Below, piece by piece: positions 2,781 through 13,102 of a DNA stretch of 64,000 nucleotides. The stretch is from Escherichia coli (GTDB lineage Bacteria > Pseudomonadota > Gammaproteobacteria > Enterobacterales > Enterobacteriaceae): the NCBI RefSeq assembly GCF_003334815.1, contig NZ_QOWO01000002.1; one strand, written 5' to 3'. The position numbers were made by a program, and so were the translations under genes. The notes beneath the pieces are model-generated. The model was given only the letters and a program-made list of their open reading frames with translations, made no database searches and was not told the DNA's origin. Each line of letters starts with the position of its first letter. Position 1 is the first letter of the stretch.

Positions 2781-5063
<2,283 letters not shown>

Positions 5064-5117
5064 GTAACACCTACCTTCTTAAGTGGATTTTTTATTTACT
5101 GCGTACTTCGACAACCA

Positions 5118-5975
5118 TTAATGGTGGTCGTTTTCACGCAGGTAAATGACCCAGTATGTCAACCCAACCAACAAACCACCACCGATAATGTTGCCGATCG
5201 TAACCGGAATCAGGTTATCAGTGATGAAATTCATCACGGTCAGGTGAGAAAAATTTTCCGGTGCAGAACCGACTGCGGTCCAAAATTCCGGGGATGCGAA
5301 GTCGCGGATTACAATACCCATCGGGATCATAAACATGTTTGCGATACTGTGCTCAAAACCGCTGGCAACAAACATCGCGACCGGCAGCACCATAATGAAC
5401 GCTTTGTCCATCAGGCTGCGGCCAGAATAACTCATCCATACTGCCAGACATACCATCAGGTTTGCCAGGATACCAAGACAGACGGCCTCAATAAAAGTAT
5501 GGTGCACTTTGTGGTCGGCGGTTTGTAGGACGTTTAGTCCCCATTGACCATTTGCGGTCATATACTCGCCGGAAAGCCACATTAAAAGTACAAACAGCAG
5601 TGCGCCGACCAGGTTGCCAAAATAGACATTTAGCCAGTTTTTCGCCAACTGACCCCAGGTGATGCGCCCACTCGCCTTAGCAACAACAATCAACACGGTG
5701 GAAGTAAAGAGATCGGCTCCGCAGACAACACAAAGAATCAGCCCCAGAGAGAAGCAAATGCCGCCAACCAGTTTTGCCATGCCGAAGGGCATTGTGCCTG
5801 TGCCAGTGGTTGCTGTGATATAGAAGACGAATGCGATTGAGATGAAAACACCGGCGGTAATCGCCAGATAGAAAGTCTTAAGCGGATGTTTCGTTGCTTT
5901 ATAGACACCCGCCTCTTCGGCCACTTTGGCCATTGCAGCAGGAAGTAAAAGATCAAAAGGGTTGTCAGCTTTCAC
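5118..5975 (-). CDS. focA: formate channel FocA (FNT family)
   Basis: ORF-track frame trimmed to GTG start giving 285-aa FocA (VKADNPFDLLLPAAMAKVAEEAG…); 54 bp upstream of pflB. Confidence 0.92.
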   Translation of the reverse strand: MKADNPFDLLLPAAMAKVAEEAGVYKATKHPLKTFYLAITAGVFISIAFVFYITATTGTGTMPFGMAKLVGGICFSLGLILCVVCGADLFTSTVLIVVAKASGRITWGQLAKNWLNVYFGNLVGALLFVLLMWLSGEYMTANGQWGLNVLQTADHKVHHTFIEAVCLGILANLMVCLAVWMSYSGRSLMDKAFIMVLPVAMFVASGFEHSIANMFMIPMGIVIRDFASPEFWTAVGSAPENFSHLTVMNFITDNLIPVTIGNIIGGGLLVGLTYWVIYLRENDHH

Positions 5976-6035
5976 ACTAACTCTCTCTTTATTAAGTCGG
6001 CGACGAGATACTAACAAAGCATTATAGATGAGAAA

Positions 6036-6049
6036 TTGATATAGATCAT
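6036..6049. promoter_or_regulatory. FNR-like palindrome TTGAT-ATAG-ATCAT upstream of focA
   Basis: Near match to FNR consensus TTGAT-N4-ATCAA, about 60-75 bp upstream of the focA start in a 405-bp AT-rich region. Confidence 0.45.
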
Positions 6050-6306
6050 ATCTCGCCTGGCTTATAGGCCCGTAACTCGCATGGTTTTTATGCAAATACG
6101 GAGTAAATATTTGATTATCCAAATAAAAATAAATTTTAAAAATTAACAAATGAGTTGAATTTTTTCCGCATCCTCCGCTAAAACAGTTAATTAAAAGGGA
6201 GCATCAGGCGAATAAAGTAACAATATCGATCGTATTTATTAAATACAAATTACCGATATTTAACCTTATAATTACAATTATTTTATTAATGCAAATATAT
6301 GTAAAG

Positions 6307-6329
6307 CGGGGCATTAAAAAAACGCCCCG
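6307..6329 (-). terminator. hairpin downstream of ycaO (putative terminator)
   Basis: Stem CGGGGC/GCCCCG with A/T-rich loop; no clean U-tract. Confidence 0.4.
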
Positions 6330-6380
6330 TAATATAACTCAGACTAATCATTAAGCCTACATTGCGTAGGCTATTTGATT

Positions 6381-8141
6381 TTATTTTGCCCAGAATGCTG
6401 CTTTGGCGCGCTGCAGCTTTTCGTAGGCCTTCAACAACGACTGATGTGCAGCAAACGCGTGCAGATCGCTATCTACCGGTTGCAGGCCGTAAAACGCCGC
6501 TTCGCCGCTCATTGCCGCACTGGCGGCTTCTACGGCATCTGCGCCGTACATGCGAACAAACGCATTCAGATATTGCAGCGGCTGGCGATCTTCTTCCTGT
6601 GCCAGTAATAACAACGTTTGCAGGCAGCGATAATAGTTGGCGCGTTCCGGACTAAATACTGATGAGTTAAACTCCATCGTCCATTCGGTCCAGACCAGAG
6701 CCTGTTCCAGATCGCCACCAGCCAGCGCCAGCATGGCTTTTAATTCACCGATACGCAGGGTGTACCAACCGTTATCCGACCCGGTCGCCAGACCCAACAG
6801 CTCACGCACGCGGGTAAAGTCATCAAAACCTTCTTCATCCAGTTGCTCGATGAGGTTCAGGTAATCTTCTTTTTCCCACTCGCTGCCTGGTAGCGAAAGA
6901 ATCGTTTCACGTAAATGGCTGCCCATACTGTTATTCGCGAGCCACAGATCTTCAGCCGGATAAATATCGGACATGCCAGGCACGATAATACGGCAAGCAT
7001 AAACGCCCAGATGCTCGTAATCGGCAATATAAACTTCTTTATCTTCTTTGTTGAAGATAGCCATCAGTGTGGCGAACTCTTCTTCCGTGGTGCCGGAGAA
7101 ATTCCAGTCCACAAACGGATAATCGGCATCCTGCTTGAACAGGTCCCAGGAGATTAAACCGCTGGAATCGATAAAGTGCGTTTCGAGGTTGGTATGTTCA
7201 GCGACTTCTTCATCATCGAAGGTTGGCGGAGTAAACACATCCAAATCTTTCAGGCCACGACCTTGCAGCAGCTCGGTCACGGTACGTTCCAGTGCTACGC
7301 CAAAATCAGGATGCGCACCGAAAGAGGCAAAGCAGGTACCGTTAGCAGGATTGAACAGTACCACGCAAATCACCGGATACTGGCCGCCAAGCGAACCGTC
7401 ATAAGCGAAGATTGGGAAACCCTCCGCTTCCAGCGTTTCGATGGCTTCAACTACTGCTGGGTAACGCGCCAGCACGTCTGCCGGGATCTCTGGCAGGCTG
7501 ATGCTTTCAGCAATAATGCGGTTTTTCACGTAGCGTTCGAAAACTTCAGACAATCCCTGAACGCGTGCTTCGTTGCGGGTATTACCTGCGGACATACCGT
7601 TGGAGACGTACAGGTTACCAATGATATTCATCGGAATATAAACGGTCTGATTGTCGGACTGACGCGTAAACGGCAGGCCGCAAATACCACGATCTTCGTT
7701 ACCGGATTGTAGGTCAATCAGCATGCTGCCGGTCAGTTCATTCTCCGGATCATAAAACGCGCGCAGACGGTCATCGAGCAGCCCTTCTGGCACATCGTCA
7801 TTTTCGGTCAGTGGGAACCATTTTTCGTTGGGATAATGCACGAACGGACCGTTGGCGATGGTTTCGCCCAGCCAGAAGTCCGCAAAAAAGTAGTTGGTTG
7901 AGAGACGCTCGAAATATTCACCGAGTGCAGAAGCCAGCGCCGCTTTCTTGGTTGCGCCTTTACCGTTGGTAAAACACAGTGCGCACTCTTTGTCGCGAAT
8001 ATGTACAGACCAGACGTTAGGCACGGGATTCAGCCAGGAGGCCTCTTCAATCTGAAAGCCGAGGTCTGAAAGTTTTTGCTGGAAGCGAGCGATGGAATCT
8101 TCCAGAGCGGCATCTTTGCCGGGGATAAATGTTTGCGTCAT
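6381..8141 (-). CDS. ycaO: YcaO-domain protein (ribosomal protein S12 methylthiolation accessory factor)
   Basis: ORF-track 597 aa trimmed to ATG giving 586 aa (MTQTFIPGKDAALEDSIARFQQ…); recognised as E. coli YcaO. Confidence 0.9.
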   Translation of the reverse strand: MTQTFIPGKDAALEDSIARFQQKLSDLGFQIEEASWLNPVPNVWSVHIRDKECALCFTNGKGATKKAALASALGEYFERLSTNYFFADFWLGETIANGPFVHYPNEKWFPLTENDDVPEGLLDDRLRAFYDPENELTGSMLIDLQSGNEDRGICGLPFTRQSDNQTVYIPMNIIGNLYVSNGMSAGNTRNEARVQGLSEVFERYVKNRIIAESISLPEIPADVLARYPAVVEAIETLEAEGFPIFAYDGSLGGQYPVICVVLFNPANGTCFASFGAHPDFGVALERTVTELLQGRGLKDLDVFTPPTFDDEEVAEHTNLETHFIDSSGLISWDLFKQDADYPFVDWNFSGTTEEEFATLMAIFNKEDKEVYIADYEHLGVYACRIIVPGMSDIYPAEDLWLANNSMGSHLRETILSLPGSEWEKEDYLNLIEQLDEEGFDDFTRVRELLGLATGSDNGWYTLRIGELKAMLALAGGDLEQALVWTEWTMEFNSSVFSPERANYYRCLQTLLLLAQEEDRQPLQYLNAFVRMYGADAVEAASAAMSGEAAFYGLQPVDSDLHAFAAHQSLLKAYEKLQRAKAAFWAK

Positions 8142-8270
8142 GAAAATCACTTTAGTCGTACGGAAAGCGCGCAATAATACGGGTTTTATCTCAAAGGCGC
8201 TATCACCGCCGCCATGCCGATGAACTGTTGACTATGCTTTTAGCGGATAAACCACGTTAAGAGCATAAAA

Positions 8271-8963
8271 ATGAAGGCGTTCGATCTCCACCGTATGGCA
8301 TTTGATAAAGTGCCTTTTGATTTCCTTGGCGAAGTTGCACTACGTAGTCTTTATACCTTTGTACTGGTCTTTTTGTTCCTCAAAATGACCGGAAGACGCG
8401 GTGTGCGGCAGATGTCGCTGTTTGAAGTTTTAATCATTCTGACGCTGGGATCAGCGGCGGGAGATGTGGCGTTTTATGATGATGTGCCGATGGTCCCGGT
8501 ACTTATCGTCTTTATTACTCTGGCGTTGTTATACCGCCTGGTAATGTGGTTGATGGCGCACAGTGAAAAACTGGAAGATCTTCTGGAAGGCAAGCCAGTT
8601 GTCATTATTGAAGATGGCGAGCTGGCCTGGTCGAAACTCAATAACTCCAACATGACGGAATTTGAGTTCTTTATGGAGCTACGATTGCGTGGCGTGGAGC
8701 AGCTGGGGCAGGTACGTCTGGCGATTCTCGAAACCAACGGGCAAATCAGTGTCTATTTCTTTGAAGATGACAAGGTGAAACCGGGTTTACTTATTTTACC
8801 CAGTGATTGTACGCAGCGTTACAAAGTGGTGCCGGAGTCGGCGGACTATGCCTGTATTCGTTGTAGTGAAATCATTCATATGAAAGCGGGGGAAAAACAA
8901 TTATGTCCGCGCTGTGCAAATCCAGAATGGACGAAGGCAAGTCGGGCAAAACGGGTGACCTGA
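8271..8963 (+). CDS. ycaP: inner-membrane protein, DUF421 family
   Basis: 230-aa ORF with hydrophobic N-terminal segments; divergent from ycaO; recognised as YcaP. Confidence 0.85.
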   Translation: MKAFDLHRMAFDKVPFDFLGEVALRSLYTFVLVFLFLKMTGRRGVRQMSLFEVLIILTLGSAAGDVAFYDDVPMVPVLIVFITLALLYRLVMWLMAHSEKLEDLLEGKPVVIIEDGELAWSKLNNSNMTEFEFFMELRLRGVEQLGQVRLAILETNGQISVYFFEDDKVKPGLLILPSDCTQRYKVVPESADYACIRCSEIIHMKAGEKQLCPRCANPEWTKASRAKRVT

Positions 8964-9161
8964 CAGTAAAAACATCGGCTTTTTGCTAATAATCCGAGAG
9001 ATTCTTTTGTGTGATGCAAGCCACATTTTTGCCCTCAACGGTTTTACTCATTGCGATGTGTGTCACTGAATGATAAAACCGATAGCCACAGGAATAATGT
9101 ATTACCTGTGGTCGCAATCGATTGACCGCGGGTTAATAGCAACGCAACGTGGTGAGGGGAA

Positions 9162-10250
9162 ATGGCTCAAATCTTCAATTTTAGTTCTGGTCCGGCAATG
9201 CTACCGGCAGAGGTGCTTAAACAGGCTCAACAGGAACTGCGCGACTGGAACGGTCTTGGTACGTCGGTGATGGAAGTGAGTCACCGTGGCAAAGAGTTCA
9301 TTCAGGTTGCAGAGGAAGCCGAGAAGGATTTTCGCGATCTTCTTAATGTCCCCTCCAACTACAAGGTATTATTCTGCCATGGCGGTGGTCGCGGTCAGTT
9401 TGCTGCGGTACCGCTGAATATTCTCGGTGATAAAACCACCGCAGATTATGTTGATGCCGGTTACTGGGCGGCAAGTGCCATTAAAGAAGCGAAAAAATAC
9501 TGCACGCCTAATGTCTTTGACGCCAAAGTGACTGTTGATGGTCTGCGCGCGGTTAAGCCAATGCGTGAATGGCAACTCTCTGATAATGCTGCTTATATGC
9601 ATTATTGCCCGAATGAAACCATCGATGGTATCGCCATCGACGAAACGCCAGACTTCGGCGCAGATGTGGTGGTCGCCGCTGACTTCTCTTCAACCATTCT
9701 TTCCCGTCCGATTGACGTCAGCCGTTATGGTGTAATTTACGCTGGCGCGCAGAAAAATATCGGCCCGGCTGGCCTGACAATCGTCATCGTTCGTGAAGAT
9801 TTGCTGGGCAAAGCGAATATCGCGTGTCCGTCGATTCTGGATTATTCCATCCTCAACGATAACGGCTCCATGTTTAACACGCCGCCGACATTTGCCTGGT
9901 ATCTATCTGGTCTGGTCTTTAAATGGCTGAAAGCGAACGGCGGTGTAGCTGAAATGGATAAAATCAATCAGCAAAAAGCAGAACTGCTATATGGGGTGAT
10001 TGATAACAGCGATTTCTACCGCAATGACGTGGCGAAAGCTAACCGTTCGCGGATGAACGTGCCGTTCCAGTTGGCGGACAGTGCGCTTGACAAATTGTTC
10101 CTTGAAGAGTCTTTTGCTGCTGGCCTTCATGCACTGAAAGGTCACCGTGTGGTCGGCGGAATGCGCGCTTCTATTTATAACGCCATGCCGCTGGAAGGCG
10201 TTAAAGCGCTGACAGACTTCATGGTTGAGTTCGAACGCCGTCACGGTTAA
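9162..10250 (+). CDS. serC: phosphoserine aminotransferase
   Basis: 362-aa ORF ([31 protein letters not shown]…), class V aminotransferase; directly upstream of aroA. Confidence 0.97.
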
Positions 10251-11650: not shown

Positions 11651-11663
11651 CGGCACATTGTCG
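11651..11663. repeat. IS4 target-site duplication, left copy (CGGCACATTGTCG)
   Basis: 13-bp sequence immediately outside the IS4 left end, identical to 13090-13102. Confidence 0.88.
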
Positions 11664-13089
11664 TAATGCCAGTCAGTTAAGCAACTGACTGGCTCTTTTT
11701 CGGGGCTGTGGGGTATTTCCAGGGCCTCTCCTTTACCACTCTCGGGAAGGCCCTTTCCCTTCTTGTCGGTAATTTCACAAGTTGTCCCATACTTGCAAGA
11801 TCGCGCATCAGCTCCGGTATACGTCCCGGTGAAGCGCCCTGCAATGTCATCAGCATTCTCATCACCATTCCGCATGATTCTGAGAAACTCAGTTGATTCG
11901 GCCAGTAACCTTTCAGATGTTCCGCCATTTTAATTATCTGATATCTCACCAGATTATAAGCCAGTAAGACACCCCACAGCTCTTGCTCCACAAGCTCCGG
12001 TTTTTTACTTCTCAGCGTCAGCCTGCTCAGTTGCATCGTCTGTTTTATCTCCCTGTATCCCAGTTCGATTTCCCAGCGATGACTGTACAGATCCGCCATT
12101 TCTCCTCCGGGGAAGCGCATGGCGTCCGTCATCGACGTCAGCAGATGGCAGACTTTTCCTTTGCGCGTCACGGTCAGCAGGCGGGCAGTCACTTCATTTC
12201 CCAGTCCCGGCCACTTTTTTCGTGCCTGCGGGCTGGTTTTCAGCTTCACCAGATGATCGCCTTTACCCAGTTTTCTGATCTCTTCATATTGCGCTCCCTT
12301 TCTGAGAGGTATCATCCAGTGGCGGTGTTCTCCCGCCAGGCTCCAGGCATTTAACAGTCCCAGTGAGTAATAACCTTTATCCATTAACGTCAGAGTGTTA
12401 TCGCCGGTTTGTTCTATAAGTTGCTCAGCAAGCTCATTTTCGCTGTTCTTCATCGTGCCGAAGGCTGCAGCCGTCAGCAGATGGCTGGTCAGTTCCATCT
12501 GGCAGACCATTTTGACCTGCGGGTAGAGCGCCGGGTTCCCGGCATGTGTCTGGCGGGGGAAGGCTGCATCGTTCTCTGGTGTATCCGGTGTGCGCCAGAA
12601 CACACCATCGATGGCCAGCAGGGTCAGGCCGCACCAGTGCGGATGCGGCGTGGCGTTATGCCAGAGCTGCGCTGTTTTCGTGAACACGCGGCGGACAGCC
12701 TCACTTCCCAGGCGCTGGCGGGCCTGAATAACGGCACTGGGGGCAACGAAGGGGCGATTGCCCGGCAGCATGATGTCCAGGCGATTCACAATCTGGTGAA
12801 GAGGTTCTTTACGCTCAAGCGCCATGCCAACAATACACCAGACCATCATTTCGAGGGGAAGACGGCGCTTGCGTAGCGTTACAGTACCTGATTCGGCAAG
12901 GCAACGAGAGATGAGTTCGGGGTCGAGGTAATCCCCCAGAGAAGTCAGTGGGTTACGCAGAGAATCGTAACGGGATACCAGATCAAGAGCCTGTCCAATG
13001 TGCATAAAAAAATCCGGAAACAAGTGAGCGTTTCCGGATTCTTACACAGCCACTGGATCGGTCAACTGATCCTTAACTGATCGGCATTA
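11664..13089 (-). mobile_element. IS4 insertion sequence, complete 1426-bp copy
   Basis: Imperfect terminal inverted repeats (TAATGCCAGTCAGTTAAG at 11664; revcomp of right end TAATGCCGATCAGTTAAG ending 13089); single transposase ORF; flanked by identical 13-bp direct repeats. Confidence 0.92.
11677..13005 (-). CDS. insG: IS4 transposase (DDE family)
   Basis: ORF-track 448 aa trimmed to ATG at 13005 giving 442 aa ([40 protein letters not shown]…); stop 14 bp inside the IS end; uninterrupted reading frame. Confidence 0.93.
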
Positions 13090-13102
13090 CGGCACATTGT
13101 CG
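13090..13102. repeat. IS4 target-site duplication, right copy (CGGCACATTGTCG)
   Basis: 13-bp sequence immediately outside the IS4 right end, identical to 11651-11663. Confidence 0.88.

Follow-up and report, generated by a model that had tools for sequence, protein, structure and literature searches.

The stretch of DNA analyzed here (64,000 nucleotides of one Escherichia coli contig, hereafter the window) carries at positions 6381..8141 of its minus strand the ordinary, core, and well-studied E. coli gene ycaO. Its product is very probably a stand-alone, dimeric, and very acidic YcaO enzyme whose substrate is folded ribosomal protein uL16 and not a peptide encoded nearby. We place high confidence in the uL16 assignment, the basis of which is a 2026 paper by a single laboratory together with a structural observation from 2020. 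The gene itself was already known; its product has been crystallized and has been functionally characterized since 2026. With uL16 as its substrate, the E. coli enzyme (EcYcaO) is the writer of a rare backbone thioamide beside the peptidyl-transferase center, and the stand-alone acidic YcaO genes of other Pseudomonadota should be read as uL16-type genes and not as orphan RiPP genes. A correction also follows for users of RefSeq, NCBIfam, and the PDB: the name that YcaO carries there should not be taken for its function.

The initial annotation had placed a 586-aa YcaO-domain gene at 6381-8141, and the open reading frame (ORF), translation, Pfam, NCBIfam NF040716, and PDB identity all agree with it. 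The minus-strand ORF spans 6381..8174 (597 aa from a TTG); translation from the ATG at 8141 yields 586 aa and ends with a TAA at 6381-6383; RefSeq places ycaO at the same position. The protein is identical at residues 1-586/586 (1356 bits) to PDB entries 4Q84/4Q85/4Q86, the nucleotide-bound crystal structures of E. coli YcaO (UniProt P75838). It scores 917 bits on the equivalog model NF040716 (cutoff, 700). At the DNA level, positions 5000-9200 of the window match E. coli K-12 MG1655 with 100% identity, and the ycaO region was matched in 5426/5426 complete E. coli genomes.

The HMM search that had been proposed for the 586-aa protein was run here and recovered the YcaO catalytic (ATP/Mg2+-binding) domain, Pfam PF02624, with an E value of 4e-75 (residues 59-391; 6969..7967, minus strand). 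Toward the C terminus lies the YcaO_C domain, Pfam PF18381, with an E value of 3.5e-65 (residues 407-581; 6399..6923, minus strand), and the protein scores 574.8 bits on TIGR00702 (cutoff, 75.65). Residues S71, E75, E78, N187, E199, E202, R203, R286, and E290 are all found in the window protein and are invariant or nearly so in ortholog alignments spanning 39-91% identity. All of these except R203 we take to be ATP/Mg2+ ligands in EcYcaO numbering, a list that reportedly goes back to work by Dunbar and colleagues in 2014. E202, whose codon occupies 7536-7538 (minus strand) within the catalytic domain, is the only one of them named in PMC13063428. Domain score and ligand residues together place the protein in the YcaO superfamily.

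The residues targeted by the 2026 mutagenesis (L55, F57, R79, D88, E202, R295, and T317) were at their stated positions in the window protein, as were E320, D325, L329, R444, R463, and F491 from the tables of PMC13063428. The YcaO_C domain is helical and TPR-like, mediates dimerization, and may help to bind uL16 (PMC13063428). The window protein has a computed pI of 4.38 (92 Asp+Glu versus 42 Lys+Arg), the reported pI of EcYcaO is 4.4 (PMC13063428), and relatives down to ∼30% identity are mostly acidic (pI, 4.3 to 5.6). Compared with the EcYcaO of Rice et al. 2026, the window protein has the same 586/586 residues, locus, pI, and residue numbering; by identity, a pI of ∼4.4, and its stand-alone gene, it belongs with the uL16-thioamidating group.

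Because rplP, which encodes uL16, is outside the 64-kb window, the function of ycaO is taken from the literature. YcaO was nominated as a candidate for uL16 thioamidation by Watson et al. 2020 (PMC7550191), and EcYcaO was reported to install a backbone thioamide at Met82 of uL16 by Rice et al. 2026 (PMC13063428). In the latter work, the uL16 thioamide was lost upon deletion of ycaO, and co-expression of YcaO gave complete thioamidation, which became incomplete when E202A or other ATP-site variants were co-expressed instead. Purified EcYcaO was sufficient in vitro with ATP, Mg2+ (as MgCl2), and Na2S, all of them needed, and only full-length uL16 was accepted; the sulfide supplied was a non-physiological source. 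The dissociation constant of the EcYcaO-uL16 pair was 9.8 nM, orthologs from Klebsiella and Pseudomonas also thioamidated uL16, and deletion of ycaO alone gave no growth phenotype in LB or M9 (all PMC13063428).

A mechanism for this reaction can be proposed, in which the order of the chemical steps at Met82 is modeled on that of other YcaOs. EcYcaO would bind uL16, a highly basic protein, in its full-length form; contact would be made over a large surface of complementary charge, and the uL16 loop at 70-93 would enter the YcaO active site. A sulfide equivalent would then attack the Met82 backbone carbonyl, ATP would phosphorylate the tetrahedral oxyanion, and departure of the phosphate would leave a C=S thioamide beside the peptidyl-transferase center, adjacent to the Arg81 that is hydroxylated by RoxA.

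Two kinds of known YcaO systems can be compared with the window protein. Like EcYcaO, the methanogen YcaO that works with TfuA in thioamidation of McrA glycine (TIGR03266) carries out ATP-dependent thioamidation of a protein backbone outside RiPP biosynthesis, and the methanogen structure 6PE3 (MJ1094) has a common ATP-binding core, matched weakly by EcYcaO (E = 7e-4). Methanogen YcaO is, however, shorter (∼385 aa), is without YcaO_C, usually occurs with TfuA, and takes short peptides, whereas EcYcaO needs folded uL16, is highly acidic, and comes from a genome with no TfuA homologue (PMC13063428). No tfuA is annotated in the ycaO region, and the window protein scores 39.1 bits on the McrA-type model TIGR03266, under its cutoff of 365. 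The TOMM/cyanobactin cyclodehydratases (SagD, BalhD, LynD, and McbD; TIGR03604) have the YcaO fold and ATP-dependent amide O-phosphorylation in common with EcYcaO, but in these azoline-forming enzymes the nucleophile comes from the precursor peptide itself, which bears a leader: it is the side chain of a neighboring Cys, Ser, or Thr. An E1-like/RRE partner recognizes that precursor and a dehydrogenase follows, and the EcYcaO locus is without these genes. The score on TIGR03604 (SagD) is 43.7 bits, under the cutoff of 219.25. Read directly, the C terminus of the window protein (...AKAAFWAK) has no proline motif of the PxPxP type, which is said, from work by Dunbar and colleagues in 2014, to play a role in azoline-forming YcaO.

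The initial annotation described ycaO as flanked by focA and ycaP and as having no precursor peptide, dehydrogenase, or TfuA/E1-like partner. Coordinates and RefSeq annotation agree on the flanks (focA, 5118-5975, minus strand; ycaP, a DUF421 gene, 8271-8963, plus strand), and the lack of partners held both in the window and across orthologous loci. The genes within 5 kb of ycaO are ycaN (LysR), ycaK, pflA, pflB, focA, ycaP, serC, aroA, and IS4, with no RiPP partner gene among them. In the 64-kb window we found no precursor peptide, E1-like/RRE partner, or FMN dehydrogenase, and for the remainder of the window no TfuA or ThiF/E1-like gene is listed in the annotation of MG1655. We also considered ycaK, 4.6 kb from ycaO with pflB and pflA in between, as an azoline dehydrogenase and rejected it, as it encodes a flavodoxin-like NAD(P)H oxidoreductase and not a nitroreductase fold. 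Small intergenic ORFs within 5 kb of ycaO were few and AT-biased; of those adjoining ycaO, none had a Shine-Dalgarno-like motif and none was Cys/Ser/Thr-rich. The proposed small-ORF check of this 5-kb neighborhood thus yielded no precursor-like peptide.

To place the locus in a wider context, we used a search with a 6-sequence ortholog alignment, which found 90 orthologous loci. The hits were mainly from Enterobacterales and Aeromonadales, so the gene context of distant orthologs rests on a small number of metagenomic contigs, of which several are short. The first pass of small-ORF clustering gave mostly shadow ORFs inside focA, serC, and ycaP, and the clustering was repeated after removal of ORFs overlapping long ORFs. 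No small-ORF family was common to more than 24 of the 90 loci, and all families were limited to close relatives; what remained were AT-biased ORFs of restricted lineages, located in focA regulatory DNA, and these were rejected as precursor candidates. There was no RiPP partner or precursor around the 90 loci. Neither of the two observations that the initial annotation had named as contradicting it, a conserved precursor-like ORF or a co-transcribed partner, appeared in the window or in these loci. Around the orthologs the gene context is otherwise unrelated, with neither a small ORF nor a partner gene conserved, which fits a substrate encoded elsewhere.

It is from RiPP clusters that the YcaO superfamily is best known, and the weak, sub-threshold matches to the SagD-type and McrA-type models might be read as traces of a cryptic RiPP enzyme, either an azoline cyclodehydratase or a peptide thioamidase, whose substrate would be a small unannotated precursor encoded nearby. 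These scores are, however, far under the cutoffs of 219 and 365 bits, and such an enzyme is at odds with a window that holds no E1-like, RRE, dehydrogenase, or TfuA gene, with flanking small ORFs that lack ribosome-binding sites and Cys/Ser/Thr-rich composition, and with the absence of a widely shared small-ORF family across the 90 loci. EcYcaO was moreover inactive on a uL16 11-mer, a 21-mer, and GluC-digested uL16, accepting the full-length protein only (PMC13063428). Given the sub-threshold family scores and the missing partner genes, we rejected the cyclodehydratase role, and a RiPP function of any kind seems vanishingly improbable; the earlier statement that this is not a natural-product cluster is borne out by a stand-alone YcaO with no RiPP genes in the window or the 90 loci. 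A different role, and the one favored by the initial annotation, is that of an accessory factor or chaperone for the radical-SAM enzyme RimO in methylthiolation of ribosomal protein S12 at Asp88. This is the name used by RefSeq, NCBIfam NF040716, and the PDB entries, and it has experimental roots: in the work of Strader et al. 2011, YcaO came down together with tagged S12, and a ycaO deletion had less S12 modification (per PMC13063428). Secondary sources differ on the size of that effect, as S12 modification falls only from 99% to 84% according to PMC13063428 but the loss is almost complete according to a 2011 review (PMC3347575). Against this role, RimO needs no helper to modify an S12 peptide in vitro, deletion of rimO abolishes S12 modification completely, and AlphaFold3 gave non-confident interfaces for YcaO-uS12 (ipTM, 0.31) and YcaO-RimO (ipTM, 0.16) (PMC13063428). 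The ATP-dependent amide-activating site has no obvious role in radical-SAM methylthiolation, and the database names go back to a single study, Strader 2011. Neither rimO nor rpsL is present in the 64-kb window. We consider it highly doubtful that YcaO is chiefly a RimO factor; its connection to S12 is weak and perhaps indirect, and it may have a minor or indirect role there besides that on uL16. The RimO/S12 claim thus stands as the current database name, whereas as a function it has been superseded by thioamidation of uL16 Met82 (PMC13063428), and the 2011 annotation "S12 methylthiotransferase accessory factor" is out of date. The check that had been suggested, S12 Asp88 mass spectrometry on a ycaO mutant, had already been done and showed only the small effect given above (PMC13063428); it was the corresponding analysis of uL16 that proved informative.

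The gene order around ycaO raises the further question of a functional coupling to focA-pflB-pflA, for instance through anaerobic regulation or an anion carried by a FocA-type channel, in which case the synteny would be non-accidental. The same-strand order ycaO, focA, pflB was kept in 71/90 loci, extending to Aeromonas (71% identity) and to one relative of only 45% identity, and this synteny across Gammaproteobacteria had been noted by Watson et al. 2020 (PMC7550191). At the other flank of ycaO, ycaP is its neighbor in only 30/90 loci and for this reason is not a conserved partner. Against a coupling, ycaO is found without focA or pfl in Rosenbergiella, Zobellella, and Candidatus Steffania, and in more distant relatives, where the gene contexts are unrelated. 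In 72 loci the distance between ycaO and focA is never below 194 nt (median, 401), and terminator-like hairpins follow ycaO. The focA-pflB genes are transcribed independently (PMC7550191, citing Sawers 2005), and the cells in which the thioamide was seen had been grown aerobically (PMC7550191). Because of the stem-loops, the spacer, and the reported independent transcription, we rejected co-transcription with focA-pfl as the main explanation, and a coupling of ycaO to focA-pflB-pflA in general is very improbable.

The hairpins in the window are two stem-loops directly 3' of the ycaO stop (6307..6372, minus strand), identified by RNA folding and by reading of the sequence. Stem-loop 1 (6354-6372) has 7 bp; stem-loop 2 (6307-6329) has 9 bp, is G+C-rich, and is followed by a U-rich sequence. 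The 6307..6372 segment folds with −30.1 kcal/mol (z = −3.9), and 0/200 shuffles were as stable. By a crude criterion, a hairpin with a T-rich tail was found within 110 nt after the ycaO stop in 55/88 orthologous loci. These stem-loops are likely one or more transcription terminators between ycaO and focA-pflB, and we infer that transcription of ycaO is monocistronic. The 405-nt spacer between ycaO and focA (5976..6380, minus strand) is the focA-pflB regulatory region and is given as context, not as part of ycaO; window positions 6001-6500 have 36% G+C. At the other end of the gene, the 129 nt that separate the divergent genes ycaO and ycaP (8142..8270) presumably hold the ycaO promoter. A consensus promoter scan found nothing in 8142..8270, consensus scans for promoters and terminators around ycaO gave counts no better than those in shuffled sequence, and Rfam returned no family in 5000-9300 at a permissive threshold.

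For uL16 thioamidation by EcYcaO, one lead on the source of sulfur comes from protein fusions. OsmC/YcaO fusions (TIGR03549) are common in Halobacteriovorax and Bacteriovoracales. In such a fusion the YcaO plus YcaO_C part has 54% identity with full-length EcYcaO and is as acidic as EcYcaO (pI, 4.7), but the fusion has an extra N-terminal OsmC-like domain of ∼145 aa that EcYcaO lacks. EcYcaO scores 681.9 bits on TIGR03549, under the cutoff of 900, and matches profile positions 148-722 only; Pfam found no OsmC domain in the window protein. Because Bacteriovoracales fuse OsmC to YcaO, a Rosetta-stone argument would point to a separate thiol protein, of the OsmC family or similar, as a possible helper in E. 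coli, where TfuA is absent. That an OsmC-type Cys carrier (a persulfide/thiol relay) is the in vivo sulfur donor or, as the weaker proposal, that the ycaO-focA-pflB order marks a real functional link is unlikely in our estimation; neither idea appears in the main text of PMC13063428. Three invariant cysteines are kept in the OsmC-like domain of the Bacteriovoracales fusions.

As a separate observation on the neighborhood, the stretch between aroA and ycaL carries a rare IS4 insertion, 3.5 kb from ycaO, that distinguishes the host strain from MG1655.

The ycaO ORF occupies 6381..8174 on the minus strand; with translation starting from the ATG at 8141, the product (6381-8141) has 586 aa and begins MTQTFIPGKDAALEDS. 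The initial annotation had placed this gene between focA and ycaP, and the RefSeq positions of all three genes agree. Pfam assigns residues 59-391 of the protein to the YcaO domain (E = 4e-75) and residues 407-581 to YcaO_C (E = 3.5e-65). The protein scored 917 bits against the NCBIfam equivalog NF040716 (cutoff, 700), and matched the crystallised E. coli YcaO (EcYcaO; PDB 4Q84, 4Q85, and 4Q86) across residues 1-586 of 586. At the DNA level, 5000-9200 shared 100% identity with the K-12 strain MG1655, and this region was matched in 5426/5426 complete E. coli genomes. The computed pI was 4.38, compared to 4.4 reported by Rice et al. 2026 (PMC13063428), and the residues of the mutagenesis tables in that paper were all at the stated positions. 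Here, ycaO is an already known gene whose product belongs to the YcaO superfamily, in which it is the founding member of the group that thioamidates ribosomal protein uL16.

In a 2.0-Å ribosome map, Met82 of uL16 carries a backbone thioamide, for which YcaO was nominated as the candidate enzyme (Watson et al. 2020, PMC7550191). The enzymology followed in Rice et al. 2026 (PMC13063428): AlphaFold3 modeling of EcYcaO against 4403 E. coli proteins gave confident interfaces only with uL16, uL29, and YcaO itself, and among these partners uL16 alone had a loop inserted in the active site. The uL16 thioamide was missing in ribosomes from a ycaO deletion, while co-expression with EcYcaO led to complete uL16 thioamidation and ATP-site variants (e.g., E202A) did not. 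In vitro, purified EcYcaO, which bound uL16 with a Kd of 9.8 nM, thioamidated the full-length protein only with Na2S, MgCl2, and ATP, and left 11-mer and 21-mer peptides and digested uL16 unmodified; the need for ATP, Mg2+, sulfide, and a folded substrate is an experimental result. The same activity was shown for the Klebsiella and Pseudomonas orthologs. Deletion of ycaO alone caused no growth defect, and in minimal medium it suppressed the slow growth caused by deletion of roxA (PMC13063428). The mechanism is most likely the general YcaO one, with a step order taken by analogy from other YcaOs: a sulfide equivalent would attack the Met82 carbonyl, ATP would phosphorylate the tetrahedral oxyanion, and departure of the phosphate would yield C=S.

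"S12 methylthiotransferase accessory factor" is still the name of YcaO in RefSeq/PGAP, NCBIfam NF040716, and PDB 4Q84-4Q86. This name reportedly originates with Strader et al. in 2011. It implies that YcaO assists RimO in methylthiolating S12, and a 2011 review describes "almost complete suppression" of the modification upon ycaO deletion (PMC3347575), but in PMC13063428 S12 methylthiolation is still at 84% in the deletion, down from 99%. These two sources, both secondary on this point, disagree on the size of the effect. Against such a role, RimO alone modified an S12 peptide in vitro, rimO deletion abolished S12 methylthiolation, and the predicted YcaO-uS12 and YcaO-RimO interfaces were non-confident (PMC13063428). 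Whichever effect size is taken, the S12 evidence is weaker than the direct uL16 enzymology, and the effect of YcaO on S12 is minor or indirect at best. The initial reading of ycaO as something other than a RiPP cluster holds, but the RimO/S12 function that it proposed is outdated given the uL16 enzymology (PMC13063428).

No RiPP partner genes were present around ycaO in the window, and no TfuA or E1-like gene was found in the MG1655 annotation covering the remainder of the window; TfuA is absent from E. coli (PMC13063428). We excluded ycaK as an azoline dehydrogenase, as it encodes a flavodoxin-like NAD(P)H oxidoreductase and not a nitroreductase-fold protein. The intergenic small ORFs within 5 kb of ycaO were AT-biased and included none rich in Cys, Ser, or Thr, and those adjoining the gene had no Shine-Dalgarno-like motif. 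All ORFs of 15 to 110 aa within 700 nt of ycaO were then clustered across 90 loci, and shadow ORFs of the neighbors were removed. After removal, no small-ORF family was shared by more than 24 of the 90 loci, and the recurring families were limited to close relatives and sited in focA regulatory DNA; therefore, neither the window nor the 90 loci yielded a precursor-like ORF that is conserved or a partner co-transcribed with ycaO, either of which would have spoken against the initial annotation. EcYcaO also differs from SagD-type azoline cyclodehydratases (43.7 bits; cutoff, 219), whose partner genes are missing at ycaO, from TfuA-linked McrA-type thioamidases (39.1 bits; cutoff, 365), whose TfuA is likewise missing, and from the OsmC-YcaO fusions of TIGR03549 (682 bits; cutoff, 900), whose OsmC domain it lacks. 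EcYcaO was assigned to none of these three families.

Such fusions (∼725 aa) are abundant in Halobacteriovorax and Bacteriovoracales (e.g., protein P0123, at 6001-8190 of locus L002). Their YcaO part is acidic and 54% identical to EcYcaO, and their OsmC part weakly resembles an OsmC-related (seleno)protein family and has three invariant cysteines (C50, C59, and C112; 120 sequences). We found no paper tying this OsmC part or its cysteines to YcaO function. The fusions could at most give a clue to the sulfur donor used in uL16 thioamidation, and they may suggest that this modification extends beyond Pseudomonadota.

Among 50%-identity cluster representatives, we found 2679 relatives with E <= 0.001, of which 665 reached E <= 1e-30, and nearly all full-length relatives were acidic (pI, 4.3 to 5.6). 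The 90 loci comprised 80 genome loci (Enterobacterales, Aeromonadales, and a few others) and 10 contigs (Klebsiella and relatives further removed). In 71 of these loci, including Aeromonas (71% identity) and one 45%-identity relative, ycaO was followed on the same strand by focA and pflB; ycaP was beside ycaO in just 30. The ycaO-focA gap was never below 194 nt (median, 401 nt), and focA-pfl transcription is reported to be independent of ycaO (PMC7550191, citing Sawers 2005); the synteny persists despite both. Neither focA nor pfl was beside ycaO in Rosenbergiella, Zobellella, or Candidatus Steffania, nor in those more distant relatives whose contexts have nothing in common. The insect endosymbiont Candidatus Steffania adelgidicola, with a 1.37-Mb genome, has an intact 593-aa ycaO (5992-7773 of locus L086; 66% identity) adjoining serC and aroA, a retention that fits a housekeeping, ribosome-related role.

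In the window, focA (5118-5975), pflB (2781-5063), and pflA (1849-2589) lie downstream of ycaO on the same minus strand, and ycaP (DUF421; 8271-8963, plus strand) lies divergently upstream, followed by serC and aroA. The ycaO-focA spacer is 405 nt and AT-rich (36% G+C at 6001-6500), with two stem-loops directly past the ycaO stop codon (6354-6372 and 6307-6329; -30.1 kcal/mol; z = -3.9). An Rfam scan of the ycaO region gave no match, and a consensus promoter scan around the gene gave hits at chance level only. Antisense to pflB, a 750-aa open reading frame at 2790-5042 (+) is most likely a stop-free shadow of this highly codon-biased gene and not itself a gene. Between aroA and ycaL/loiP, a 1426-bp IS4 (11664-13089; transposase ORF at 11677-13023, minus strand) has a 13-bp target-site duplication, CGGCACATTGTCG, on either side, for a total span of 11651-13102. 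This insertion is absent in MG1655, which therefore is not itself the source of the window, and was found in only 40 of the 5426 complete E. coli genomes, for instance in the NCTC86 lineage.
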